Of a stretch of 64,000 bases of DNA, positions 10,326 to 58,353 are shown piece after piece (the first letter of the stretch is position 1; every line of letters starts with the position of its first letter). The position numbers and the translations under genes were made by a program. Below the pieces are notes generated by a model that ran no database searches, was not told the origin of the DNA, and worked only from the letters and a program-made list of their open reading frames with translations. This DNA comes from a virus (lineage: Duplodnaviria > Caudoviricetes): positions 1 to 64,000 of IMG/VR virus record IMGVR_UViG_3300025270_000009; one strand, 5' to 3'.

Positions 10326-10739
10326 TCAGTAGTTGTTGAGAAACTCTTCGAGTTTTTCCATAAACTCGCTGTCGATATCTCCAACCGGAATTCTATCTTT
10401 GATAGTGTCCAGTATAGCTCTATCACCTTCGTCAACGACTACACCGCAACGTTGCAAAATATCGTAACGTTCTTTATCCCACGTTTTAAAAACAAGCGTT
10501 GCAAGCTTGAATTTATCGAGGCCGTGAACGTTTTTAGCAAGTGCTTCAACTTTATTCATTGGTAAAACAACACTGCCTTTCTTCGCCATAGAAAGGTTGT
10601 TTTGGTTTCTATAACCAATCAGTCGAGCAATCTCACCAACTGACTTGCCACTGTGTTCAATCGGGCCCTCAATGTAATCTGCTATTGCTTGAGCGCGACG
10701 AGGCTCTTTCTCTTCAGCTAAACTAATTTGTTGTGCCAT
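10326..10739 (-). CDS. XRE-type HTH transcriptional regulator (candidate immunity repressor)
   Basis: HTH-like segment SVGEIARLIGYRNQNNLSMAKKG; stand-alone gene beside the origin. Confidence 0.7.
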   Translation of the reverse strand: MAQQISLAEEKEPRRAQAIADYIEGPIEHSGKSVGEIARLIGYRNQNNLSMAKKGSVVLPMNKVEALAKNVHGLDKFKLATLVFKTWDKERYDILQRCGVVVDEGDRAILDTIKDRIPVGDIDSEFMEKLEEFLNNY

Positions 10740-10859
10740 AACGTTTCTCCAAAAACTGTTTACCAGTACATCCGTTTACCTGGTCTTTTTTTTAAAATCT
10801 CAATTCGAGACAACTTGAAGTATAAGACTTGTTGTATTTGTGTCAATAGATATAAATGA

Positions 10860-11373
10860 CTAATCTCAACTTTTATTCCTAACTGAGTAAAAGTATCTAA
10901 GTTAAGAAAAACTTATTACTCACGCTTTCTATTTTTGGATTAACTAGCTCTTAAACAGTAGTTATTGTTAAAGACATTGAAAGACATTAAAAGAACATTA
11001 CGGTGTTCAAGATCGAGCTGCAAGCGTTGACCGGCTTGAGCTTCAGAAATGGTCTGTCACTCAAAGTACGCGCCGCGTCACCCGTAGTACGCTACTTGTC
11101 ACCTATGGTTCGTAAAAGCGTCACCCAAAGTACGTTACCCAAATCACAGGTTCCTAACAGCTTTTCAACAGCATATTCACAGGCAAAAAGCTGATATTTG
11201 AGGTCAAATAGACCTGTAACCCCTGCCAAACCCCAGTTTTTGCCAAAAAGCGTCACTCAAAGTACGTTATTTCGTCACCTAAAGTACGCGAATTCGATTT
11301 TATGCGTCACTCAAAGTACGTTTCTAATCAGCCCCGTCACCTAAAGTACGTGCAGAGCGTCACCCAAAGTACG
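10860..11373. other. Plasmid replication origin (AT-rich region plus iterons)
   Basis: AT-rich tract with three AAGA(C/A)CATT-like repeats (about 10970-11000), followed by two iteron clusters immediately downstream of rep. Confidence 0.8.
11056..11373 (+). repeat. Nine 15-bp iterons, consensus GTCACYCAAAGTACG
   Basis: Copies start at 11056, 11077, 11098, 11120 (21-22 bp period) and at 11252, 11274, 11306, 11336, 11359. Confidence 0.92.
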
Positions 11374-20456: not shown

Positions 20457-20528
20457 TGCTGATACCTCTTGTTTTATTGCTGAATGTTTGTGAATGCGAG
20501 AACATACTGCTCTCTTATACTTTGTATG

Positions 20529-55859: not shown

Positions 55860-57545
55860 ATGAGTGAAAGAGTCGTAATAGGCTCGGGAGCCGTCAAAGC
55901 CCAGGTCTTCGAGGGCTCGCGTGACGTTGAGCGCATCATAAATAAAGCGCTCAGCTACCACGTCTACGGCAGTGAGCACATGAACGAAAAAGGGGCTGCA
56001 ACGGGATGGGACGGCATGAGCAGCTTTTACTCGTTCAGGAAGAAACAGTTTCCGGCCGGTTTTGCACGCTCGGTTGTGACGTCTTTGCGCAAGAAGGGTT
56101 ACAACGTTATATGGAAGCAACGCCAAGCACCGGAGCCACTGGGCCCACTAAAACCGAAAGTAGATGACTTTCCGGAAGATCCACGTTACAGCTATCAACC
56201 TGAAACGGTCAATCGCCTGGTGAAGTACCAAAAAATCATTGCGAAAGCAGCAACCGGCGCTGGCAAGTCACGTATAGCACGTTTAGCGCATAAGCGCATC
56301 GGCAGAAAGACATTATTTCTAACGACTCGCGGCATTTTGATGCACCAGATGAAAGAAGGCTATGAAGAGTCCATCGGTGAAAAAGCGGGAATTGTTGGTG
56401 ACGGCGAATGGGACGAAGTCAACGGCTTTAACGTTGGCATGGTGCAAACACTCGCTCAAGCACTGGAGCCGGCTGACCTCAAGAAAGAAACTGAGCGCTA
56501 CTTCTCCAATAAAGAAGCCGAGCTCGACCGCGATGTTGAGCGAATCAAACGAGCTCGCAAGCGTCAGGGTTTTGCGCTTGGCAAAATCATGGACGAGATT
56601 GCTGACTATCGTGATAAATTCAATGAATCGCAACCAAGCTCTGAAGAAATAGAGAAAATAGTGCGTAAGCGCTATGAGCGCCAAAAAGAGCGTAATGAAA
56701 AAGCGCTCAAGTTCTTAGAGACCGTCGACCTTCTCATCTTAGAGGAGGCGCACGAAACCGGGTCTGATAGCTATTACAAGGTTTGCAATGCGTGTAAAAA
56801 CGCCATGTACCGCTTGGCACTAACCGGTACCGCCTTTCAGAAGTCTCAGGCAGAGGATAATATGCGCCTCATGGCCGTCAGCGGCCCAATTGGCATTATC
56901 ATCAGCGAAAAACTGCTTATTGACCGGGGCATTTTGGCCACACCGAAGTTTATGTTCCGTGATGTTACGGCGCCGACCAAGCTTTACCGCTCGACGGGTT
57001 ACCAACGAGCTTACAAATTCGGCATTGTCGAGAACCAGTTGCGCAATGAAGATGCGGTTATGCACGCCACACACCTCTCATCGTTCGGTCTGACCTCGAT
57101 GATGCTTGTTGGCCAGAAGAATCACGGTAAGATCTTAAAGTCGATGCTTGAAGACGCCGGATTAAGGGCTGAGTTTATCCTGGGCGAAAACAGCCAGAAA
57201 CAACGCCAGGCTGCGCTCAATAAACTTGGCCAGGGCAAAATCGATGTATTGATTGGCACGACTATTCTGGATGTCGGTGTTGATGTTCCCAGTGTCGGCG
57301 CCGTCTTTCTTCTCGGTGGCGGTAAAGACGAGGTCAGTCACAGACAGCGTATTGGTCGTGGACTGCGAGCCAAGAAGTCAGGGCCCAACATTTGCTTTGT
57401 GTTTGACTATCTCGACCGCAAGAACAAACACCTCAAAGAGCACGCGGCCACACGCCTTAAAATCATTAAGGATACGCCAGGCTTCAGAGAGAACATTGTC
57501 GAAAACCTTGAGCCTGAAAAGTTTGGCTTTGAGAGGGCTGCGTAA
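55860..57545 (+). CDS. Superfamily 2 helicase
   Basis: ATGAGKS, EEAH, LTGT, DVGVDVP, QRIGRGLR. Confidence 0.92.
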   Translation: MSERVVIGSGAVKAQVFEGSRDVERIINKALSYHVYGSEHMNEKGAATGWDGMSSFYSFRKKQFPAGFARSVVTSLRKKGYNVIWKQRQAPEPLGPLKPKVDDFPEDPRYSYQPETVNRLVKYQKIIAKAATGAGKSRIARLAHKRIGRKTLFLTTRGILMHQMKEGYEESIGEKAGIVGDGEWDEVNGFNVGMVQTLAQALEPADLKKETERYFSNKEAELDRDVERIKRARKRQGFALGKIMDEIADYRDKFNESQPSSEEIEKIVRKRYERQKERNEKALKFLETVDLLILEEAHETGSDSYYKVCNACKNAMYRLALTGTAFQKSQAEDNMRLMAVSGPIGIIISEKLLIDRGILATPKFMFRDVTAPTKLYRSTGYQRAYKFGIVENQLRNEDAVMHATHLSSFGLTSMMLVGQKNHGKILKSMLEDAGLRAEFILGENSQKQRQAALNKLGQGKIDVLIGTTILDVGVDVPSVGAVFLLGGGKDEVSHRQRIGRGLRAKKSGPNICFVFDYLDRKNKHLKEHAATRLKIIKDTPGFRENIVENLEPEKFGFERAA

Positions 57546-58090
57546 TGGCTCTCAGATTTGGCAAAACAAAGAAAATCGACCTGAGCAAGCTGACAGCGAG
57601 AGAAATCACCTCTCGCTTTCACACCATTATCGGCCAAAAACACTACGAGTCGTGCTATCCAAACGTTGTTCTCGACGAATGGGGTGAGCTCGATATCCTG
57701 GCTTTTCGAAAGTCAGGTTTTGCTGATGAGTTTGAGGTGAAAATAAGCCGCTCCGACTTCAAGCAGGACTTCAAAAAGACCTGCCATTTCGAAAGGCGTG
57801 GAGACGACACGCGCAGAAAGCACAGAAACCCGGTTCGCGACAAACACGGCTGTCTTGAGGCCGGAGACTGTCTGCCCAACTATTTCTGGTTTGTGACTCC
57901 CAAGGGGCTCTTAAAACCCGAAGAGATTCCGGAATACGCCGGTCTTATCGAAGTCAGTGAGCTCGGCATCCCACACTTCATAAAGTCGGCGCCGAGACTG
58001 CACAGGCACAAGCTCGACCCGGAGAGACGGTACTACATTGCTCGAAAACTAAGCTTTCGGTACTGGGATATGATAAAAAAGAGTTTTTAG
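57545..58090 (+). CDS. MmcB-like PD-(D/E)XK nuclease
   Basis: ELD...EFEVKISRSDFKQD, NYFWFVTP, PEYAGL. Confidence 0.72.
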   Translation: MALRFGKTKKIDLSKLTAREITSRFHTIIGQKHYESCYPNVVLDEWGELDILAFRKSGFADEFEVKISRSDFKQDFKKTCHFERRGDDTRRKHRNPVRDKHGCLEAGDCLPNYFWFVTPKGLLKPEEIPEYAGLIEVSELGIPHFIKSAPRLHRHKLDPERRYYIARKLSFRYWDMIKKSF

Positions 58091-58128
58091 GGGTTTACAC
58101 GGTATCTAAATGCTGAGATACTATTTCC

Positions 58129-58282
58129 AGTTCAACAACATGACGACCTGTTGAGCCATTTGAATTCTCCACAATTCAGACGTATTACCAAGTCCTTTTG
58201 GTTAATTTTAAATCAGAGCCTTGCTTTGTGCACCGCGCACACTAGCTGAATGAAGCCCCTTTCGCCATGAGGGGCTTTTTTT
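58129..58282 (+). ncRNA. Candidate small regulatory RNA
   Basis: Putative promoter TTTACA-17-(TGA)GATACT at 58094-58122, several short hairpins, no long ORF, ends in an intrinsic terminator. Confidence 0.5.
58253..58282 (+). terminator. Rho-independent terminator
   Basis: AAGCCCCT...AGGGGCTT followed by a T run. Confidence 0.8.
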
Positions 58283-58353
58283 ATTGCTGTCTATTGACCC
58301 CCTATCTATTTCATTTAGCATTGTCCGTGAATTCACAGAAACGGACTAACTGT

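Follow-up and report, generated by a model that had tools for sequence, protein, structure and literature searches.

A candidate small RNA gene with two-part complementarity to a leader shared by many operons of a phage genome

Positions 58094-58282 of a 101,852-bp phage genome, which lie at the 3' end of the helicase-nuclease operon, have the layout of a non-coding transcription unit, and the 3' part of the RNA predicted from it is complementary, in two separate blocks, to a short leader that opens about two dozen operons of the same genome. The preferred reading, to which a probability of roughly 0.45 is given from the sequence comparisons described below, is that the unit encodes a real small RNA that shares its terminator with the operon and acts against the shared leader. 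The narrower proposition, that the unit gives rise to a real RNA sharing a terminator with the operon, is judged probable.

As proposed here, an RNA of about 154 nt would be made from an operator-controlled promoter, and probably by read-through from the operon as well, and would end at the operon terminator. Its last third would be an anti-leader composed, in order, of CCUUGCUU, a small hairpin, GCUGAAUG and the terminator. This segment would mirror (A)CAUUCAGC at the 5' end of the mRNA together with AAGCAAGG at the ribosome-binding site, an arrangement belonging to 23 operons. Pairing in trans with these leaders would cover the ribosome-binding site and lower translation, and the recA, cobS-like, parA, ligase, hfq-like and early-cassette operons would be turned down in this way, probably with the assistance of a U-tail-binding Hfq-type chaperone, either the host's or the phage's own.

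The genome and its relatives

The stretch of DNA analyzed, referred to throughout as the window, is the first 64 kb (64,000 nt) of the virus record, which is rated complete. Encoded in the window are a DNA polymerase III alpha subunit, RecA, a CobS-like AAA_5 ATPase, ParA and an ATP-dependent ligase, which confirms the identities that an earlier sequence-only reading of this DNA had given to the last four. The helicase shares 41-45% identity with its counterparts in Pseudomonas phage nickie, Rhizobium phage RHEph10 and the phage-plasmid SSU5, and ParB_N-type proteins are recorded at syntenic genes in the relatives L011 and L012; we read the element as an SSU5/nickie-like phage with plasmid-type partition genes. 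Nearly all genes lie on the minus strand, and 55860-58668 forms a small plus-strand island.

Two lineages of relatives were recovered by protein search and then exact look-ups. The close lineage (L011, L132 and L133) is near-identical, whereas the 181-aa protein encoded by the last gene of the helicase-nuclease operon has 85-86% amino-acid identity in the diverged lineage, L012 and L007. An identical 181-aa protein is present on 11 contigs, and these closest contigs are uninformative because their 58094-58282 unit is identical too. Wider searches brought little more: a nucleotide search against phage and plasmid records gave no match, exact-pattern scans of IMG/VR for the leader returned solely unrelated coding matches or single chance matches, and a helicase-guided locus search of viral contigs found nothing. 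Searching with the 181-aa alignment found nothing in species genomes and, in metagenomes, only relatives of at most 43% identity, so that no third lineage was obtained and the comparison of the unit rests on two lineages only. In Pseudomonas phage nickie, which is too distant for comparison, the helicase gene is followed by tRNA genes.

The relatives also differ in the large subunit of ribonucleotide reductase, which is 1119 aa with a faint LAGLIDADG match in a close relative (L016:1-3190) and 730 aa in a diverged relative (L017:1271-3463). This pattern suggests an intein or homing-endonuclease insertion.

Anatomy of the 58094-58282 unit

The sequence of the unit agrees with the earlier description of an ORF-free region having a promoter, an operator, hairpins and a U-tailed terminator (Table 1). 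Plus-strand coding capacity is confined to one 32-aa TTG ORF and one 4-codon ORF, and neither is conserved in the relatives. A decayed small gene was also considered and rejected, as tblastn of all phage ORFs against the unit found no protein remnant. The stop codon of the 181-aa gene ends at 58090, immediately ahead of the promoter, and no second terminator was found between 58090 and 58252. Transcription is predicted to start at about 58129. In its geometry (-35, 3 nt, TATCT) the promoter conforms to the other operator-bearing promoters of the phage. Loops of the body hairpins are CU-rich (CUCCAC, UCCU), and the fold of the unit has a z-score of -3.7 against shuffles.

Table 1. Coordinates of the unit, its proposed targets and related features. 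Positions refer to the window unless a genome or relative is named.
Feature	Position	Strand	Description
Sigma-70-type promoter (predicted)	58094-58122	+	-35 TTTACA 58094-58099, 17-nt spacer, TG-extended -10 GATACT 58117-58122
Operator-like palindrome TATCT-N8-AGATA	58103-58120		Overlaps spacer and -10
RNA body	58129-58218	+	Three predicted hairpins (58130-58156, 58159-58180, 58187-58202), then an A/U-rich single-stranded stretch
Seed B CCUUGCUU	58219-58226	+	Complement of the leader's AAGCAAGG Shine-Dalgarno block
Small hairpin UGUGC-ACCGC-GCACA	58227-58241	+	Between the seeds, in place of the leader's 2-3 nt linker
Seed A GCUGAAUG (= GCTGAATG)	58245-58252	+	Complement of CAUUCAGC, the leader's first bases; abuts terminator stem
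Intrinsic terminator	58252-58285	+	10-bp stem 58252-58278, U7 tail; common to helicase-nuclease operon 55860-58090
Leader copies in the window (proposed targets)	825, 8438, 13316, 14859, 17712, 20479 (20479-20486), 62494 (62494-62501), 63377	-	
Hfq-like (Sm-fold) gene, 89 aa	20187-20456	-	Own mRNA carries the leader at 20479-20486
86.3-kb unit	G000:C1:86312-86430 (L013:1812-1931), outside window	-	Promoter, anti-leader, terminator
65.7-kb unit	G000:C1:65663-65775 (L014:1663-1775)	+	About 75 nt; three-block complement to leader/ribosome-binding site of 225-aa gene
Perfect operator-like palindromes	Window 3503, 47752, 58103; genome 86955, 101490		
Operator half-sites	8467, 22017, 38338, 50416, 61155, 62550, 65182 and others		

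Two features are those expected of known classes of small RNA. The 10-bp stem followed by T7 is a strong Rho-independent terminator with a tail of at least six U, as in Hfq-dependent sRNAs, and a terminator common to the upstream mRNA, together with an own (predicted) promoter past the coding sequence, is the arrangement of 3'UTR-derived sRNAs. Rfam gave no gathering-threshold match to the unit and sub-threshold noise only at E <= 10; the C4 covariance model had no gathering-threshold match in the whole window and was absent from the E <= 10 matches in 57900-58500.

Several smaller observations concern the body of the RNA. The A/U-rich stretch at 58203-58218, along with the U-tail, would be compatible with Hfq binding. 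A 13-nt hairpin sequence, GUCCUUUUGGUUA (58195-58207, plus strand), recurs in minus-strand sense at 61708-61720, within a hairpin-rich non-coding stretch (61683-61878). Both copies would present the same anti-ribosome-binding-site loop, and a search for a target matching this loop found none. The 5' end of the unit (58129-58145) is itself leader-like, reading AGTTCAACAACATGAC as compared with ..GTAACAACATGAC at the start of the 83727 gene. L012 has a 5' stretch, CUCAGCGA, at about 10578-10592 with which its 3' seed pairs, and the RNA of the 86.3-kb unit masks itself likewise; such self-masking 5' ends may point to a toehold-type design, or else to the way in which the units originated.

The shared leader and its operons

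The leader motif is strongly over-represented. The window contains 17 copies of CATTCAGC where 2.67 are expected, a count reached in none of 100 shuffles, and the 101,852-bp genome contains 39. A motif profile was built from 22 leader-context copies, to which the RecA copy (825) and a GTTCAGC variant (88.2 kb) are additional. Genome-wide, the leader opens some two dozen operons (count 23), with all copies on the minus strand. Its layout is (A)CATTCAGCA(A), then a short linker, then a purine block that is AAGCAAGG or resembles it, and finally ATG. The sequence-only reading had assigned the motif to the leaders of recA, the cobS-like gene, parA, the 446-aa gene, ligase, the Hfq-like gene and two accessory operons, and it was found in all eight. 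It is kept unchanged in the diverged relative L012/L017.

Most copies of the motif start 7 nt past the -10 of a stereotyped promoter and would thus form the first bases of the mRNA. Three copies (62494, 72084 and 86235) instead lie 19-35 nt further downstream of the promoter, past a hairpin, which argues that the leader acts as RNA and not as a promoter DNA element.

Between 69 and 101 kb there are about 15 small-gene cassettes, each bounded by a fused terminator hairpin-promoter-leader module (L014, L015) in which the -35 is supplied by the descending arm of the hairpin. These modules are a likely substrate for cassette shuffling. In T4-type phages, cassette boundaries are formed by the promoter-early stem-loop (PeSL), which the modules resemble; the modules could explain the spread of leader copies. 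We know of no matching antisense RNAs for PeSL modules, and in this they differ from the leader modules described here.

Two-part complementarity and predicted pairing

The exact complementarity of GCUGAAUG (58245-58252) to CAUUCAGC, and the UGUGC/GCACA hairpin at 58227-58241, were both borne out as the sequence-only reading had given them. A second block had been overlooked: CCTTGCTT, at 58219-58226, is complementary to the leader half that reads AAGCAAGG. The match thus comprises 8 + 8 nt, with the blocks in the order and orientation needed for antiparallel pairing with one leader, and the probability of both fixed 8-mers falling within 30 nt of each other in a 150-nt unit is about 1e-6. The two-part match therefore excludes chance, and leaves either a functional antisense RNA or a non-functional copy of the leader. 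In having two separate stretches that lie over a target ribosome-binding site (CCUUGCUU and GCUGAAUG against AAGCAAGG and CAUUCAGC) the unit is like RNAs of the C4 type, and in having a short seed at or near the target ribosome-binding site (8 nt on all leaders, and 8 nt to AAGCAAGG on about nine) it is like Hfq-dependent sRNAs. Two other explanations of the complementarity were tried and rejected. End-to-end pairing inside the helicase operon mRNA fails since the leader of that mRNA starts ACATTTTCC, without the motif; and, for a reading of the region as a minus-strand leader, there is no promoter between hairpin and motif, no start codon follows AAGCAAGG, and the 12-aa ORF is missing in relatives.

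Neither seed is free in the predicted structure, both being partly paired. Seed A had been described as unpaired, but its first two bases (GC) and the A before them pair to GCU of the upstream block in the minimum-energy fold, and its UGAA pairs with the U-tail. The cost of opening is 4.1 kcal/mol for seed A and 3.3 kcal/mol for seed B; in L012 and L007, where the seed pairs with the leader-like 5' stretch, it is 5.7-6.7 kcal/mol. Pairing energies of seed A on all leaders tested were -12.2 to -14.2 kcal/mol (-12.6 on most), at about the 1st percentile of background, and those of seed B were -14 to -17 kcal/mol on about nine leaders. Plain duplex energies of the 3' part differed by at most about 1 sd between leader genes and other genes. 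Duplex energies for the whole-length RNA were dropped, being non-discriminating and dominated by unrealistic long imperfect duplexes, and seed-segment and opening energies were used in their place. By these calculations pairing would be feasible but modest.

Two stronger antisense units elsewhere in the genome

Judged by its sequence, the 86.3-kb unit, an independent instance of the layout seen at 58094-58282, is the strongest candidate anti-leader RNA unit of the genome. Its promoter (TTGTCG-17-TGTAAT) is operator-free and conserved in three lineages, and a 22-nt contiguous anti-leader is followed 1-3 nt later by a terminator. The unit pairs at 21/21 positions with the leader at 88223-88243 and over 10-13 nt with some 20 further leaders; seed energies on the leaders tested range from -17 to -41 kcal/mol against a background of -10.6 +/- 3.8, and the fold z-score is -5.7. 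In L017, the seed of the 86.3-kb-type unit and the orthologous leader are both without the same TAGCAAGC block. L017 also carries, at 10540-11120, a MazE/PemK toxin-antitoxin pair between the 148-aa gene and the 86.3-kb-type promoter that is absent from this genome, and this insertion upstream of the promoter indicates that the unit does not depend on the gene before it. The anti-Shine-Dalgarno half of the 86.3-kb RNA is masked by the RNA's own 5' end in both lineages, and the part complementary to the mRNA 5' end stays exposed.

The 65.7-kb unit is directed at the leader of the 225-aa gene (60393-61070), at 61070-61115 on the minus strand of the window and 4.6 kb away. Here a compensatory change is seen, AAGCTG/CAGCTT in this genome being AGCGA/TCGCT in L012, with 14-15 nt of perfect pairing kept. 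On these comparisons, trans-antisense control appears to be a real feature of this phage group, and the results for the 86.3-kb and 65.7-kb units raise the prior for the 58094-58282 unit. The phage multi-target antisense system that had been proposed from the sequence alone is thereby upheld as a concept, through two units that keep their complementarity, but is not established for the 58094-58282 unit, which on sequence has the weakest complementarity among at least three candidate antisense RNA genes in the genome.

Conservation of the unit and alternative explanations

Relative to L012 and L007, the promoter is 74% identical with both hexamers kept, and the terminator is about 80% identical with its stem kept through changed pairs. 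The RNA body is 33% identical, with 28 gap columns and large indels, and seed B and the small hairpin are missing in both. A complement of the leader nevertheless abuts the terminator, as TTGCTGAAT (9 nt) in L007 and as TTGCTGAA (8 nt) in L012, so that at least 8 nt of leader complement are kept at the same spot in the diverged lineage, but shifted. The outcome for joint conservation of seed and leader, which had been put forward as a check on the small RNA, is thus divided: the complement persists at the terminator (8-9 nt) and the leader is kept, whereas the seed is shifted and seed B is missing. The seed versions tAGCTGAATG, TTGCTGAATa and TTGCTGAAa are each 1-2 changes from a putative TTGCTGAATG; their differences could come from drift or neutral decay of this ancestral 10-mer alone, and the pattern would fit selection equally.

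These data bear most directly on the main rival, which is rather unlikely. It holds that the anti-leader is a non-functional remnant, of an 86.3-kb RNA paralogue or of an old leader copy, in the 3' UTR of the operon; that the terminator ends the operon only; and that promoter and operator are kept for something else, for example the binding of a regulator. The absence of seed B and of the hairpin from L012 and L007, seed differences that fit neutral change, and a body of low identity with large indels would all be expected of such a copy. The operon is without any other terminator and needs this one in any case, and the operator palindrome is a general protein-binding motif. Decay does less well with the retention of both promoter hexamers, in-family spacing and plus orientation beside a body diverged beyond alignment, or with a complement that in each of the two lineages lies right at the terminator. 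An inverted whole cassette, moreover, would put a promoter between leader and hairpin, and none is present. The earlier caution was that the terminator may simply end the helicase-nuclease operon; it is the operon's only terminator, and the promoter hexamers and the adjoining complement have been kept as well.

It is a good deal less likely that the small RNA is real but has other main targets, in host or phage mRNAs, reached through the CU-rich loops CUCCAC and UCCUUU, with the leader complement being incidental ancestry. Of the body's motifs, only UCCAC and a C/U-rich stretch are found in L012 too, the CUCCAC loop is complementary to GUGGAG, the ribosome-binding site in the 65156 leader, and the sequence of hairpin 3 is the one that recurs at 61708-61720. 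The matches, however, are just 5-6 nt, and no long complement to any translation start was found in the phage genome.

A cis-acting leader or attenuator, in which the 58094 promoter and the 58252-58282 terminator would form a conditional read-through switch for a lipoprotein gene (58354-68), is very unlikely. Promoter, structured RNA, terminator and gene do follow in that order on one strand, and the only weak Rfam matches are amino-acid operon leaders; these matches are nonetheless far sub-threshold (20 vs 55 bits), a separate in-family promoter, TTGACC-CCC-TATCT at 58294, belongs to the lipoprotein gene and keeps its -35 in relatives, and no alternative anti-terminator pairing is evident in the fold. 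Coincidence, which the sequence-only reading had allowed for and which gains from the approximately 2.7 copies of such an 8-mer expected per window, has a negligible share given the second 8-nt block in the right order and orientation, a position against the terminator that the 86.3-kb unit shares, and the retention of a complement in relatives.

The Hfq-like protein and the operator-like motif

The proposal that the 89-aa protein is Hfq-like is supported by its family profile and its predicted fold. Taken singly, the protein falls below Pfam gathering thresholds (LSM, 18.2 bits vs 23.4; Hfq, 16 vs 27), but a profile of 33 homologues, of which 12 match Pfam Hfq, reaches solved Hfq structures at E = 1.8e-5. 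The AlphaFold model (pLDDT 83.6) has a helix at 31-37 and strands at 42-82, as expected of an Sm fold, in which an N-terminal helix precedes a bent sheet of five strands. Every top-ranked Foldseek match listed was an Hfq; target TM-scores were mostly 0.7-0.8, and rmsd was 1.0-3.3. The protein has a basic N-terminal extension and about 48 distant homologues in a library of 1.8 billion proteins. The exact phrase 'phage-encoded Hfq' was not found in a literature search.

The operator-like motif TATCT-N8-AGATA is present as 5 perfect palindromes, with more than 12 half-site copies at other promoters. As palindrome or in the half-site form TATCTCAG-N4-TG..ATA it is found on more than 15 promoters, late-gene promoters among them, and the motif TATCT(C)-N-(G)AGATA overlaps the -10 of both early and late promoters. 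Early cassettes carry a wider-spaced version, TATYTC-N14-GARATA. Dispersed over promoters in this way, the palindromes may be likened to the C1 operators of phage P1. A gene for an HTH_3 protein lies just downstream of the 86.3-kb unit.

Relation to known systems and implications

MicL and DapZ are 3'UTR-derived sRNAs of the host chromosome that have an internal promoter (type I). Like them, and with no homology implied, the unit starts right past the last stop codon of an operon and uses the operon terminator. With its own promoter and a terminator shared with the operon, the RNA could arise either from that promoter or by processing of the operon mRNA.

The closest known system would be the c4 antisense RNA of the phage-plasmids P1 and P7, of which the unit would be a variant with multiple targets and multiple genes, and possibly with a chaperone encoded by the phage. 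In the account given in PMC12197685, which summarizes Citron and Schuster 1990, c4 (immI region) acts in trans, with two short stretches that pair with phage mRNA including the ribosome-binding site and block translation; the target named there is icd/ant only, which is transcribed from c4's own operon. The likeness, of a trans antisense RNA encoded by a phage-plasmid with two separate blocks that cover a ribosome-binding site, is an analogy of mechanism and not homology. Unlike c4, the unit has 23 dispersed operons as its proposed targets, its seeds lie beside the terminator rather than in loops, and there are several RNA genes. VpdS, of the phage-plasmid VP882, and PreS, of lambda, are Hfq-dependent multi-target phage sRNAs that use host Hfq and act largely on host genes (PMC12197685). 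With these the unit has in common a short phage RNA, a U-tailed terminator, a short seed and a proposed Hfq-assisted action on several mRNAs, phage mRNAs included. It differs in that its targets are defined by a leader on the phage's own operons and in that the phage encodes an Hfq-like protein; no sequence relation of the unit to VpdS or PreS was found.

A more far-reaching proposal is tentative and somewhat unlikely as a whole. According to it, a private leader on 23 operons, at least three trans-antisense RNAs and the phage's own Hfq-like chaperone would together make up a self-contained riboregulation, a global translational switch for early, replication and partition genes in which the operator-controlled copy at 58094-58282 would be lytic and the operator-free copy constitutive.

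In T4, the RegA and RegB proteins turn down early mRNAs globally and post-transcriptionally through a short signal at ribosome-binding sites. The control considered here is similar in that a whole class of early messages would be turned down, and differs in that the proposed effector is an RNA. To our knowledge, the phage antisense RNAs described so far (P1 c4, P22 sar, lambda OOP, VpdS and PreS) act on one or a few genes, or on host genes. If action of the unit against the shared leader is true, a private leader would mark an entire class of the phage's operons, small RNAs that mirror this leader would address all of the marked operons, and the phage may supply its own Sm/Hfq-type chaperone. 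Such a system would be an RNA counterpart of the early shut-off by T4 RegA and RegB, and would constitute a compact, portable post-transcriptional regulon.
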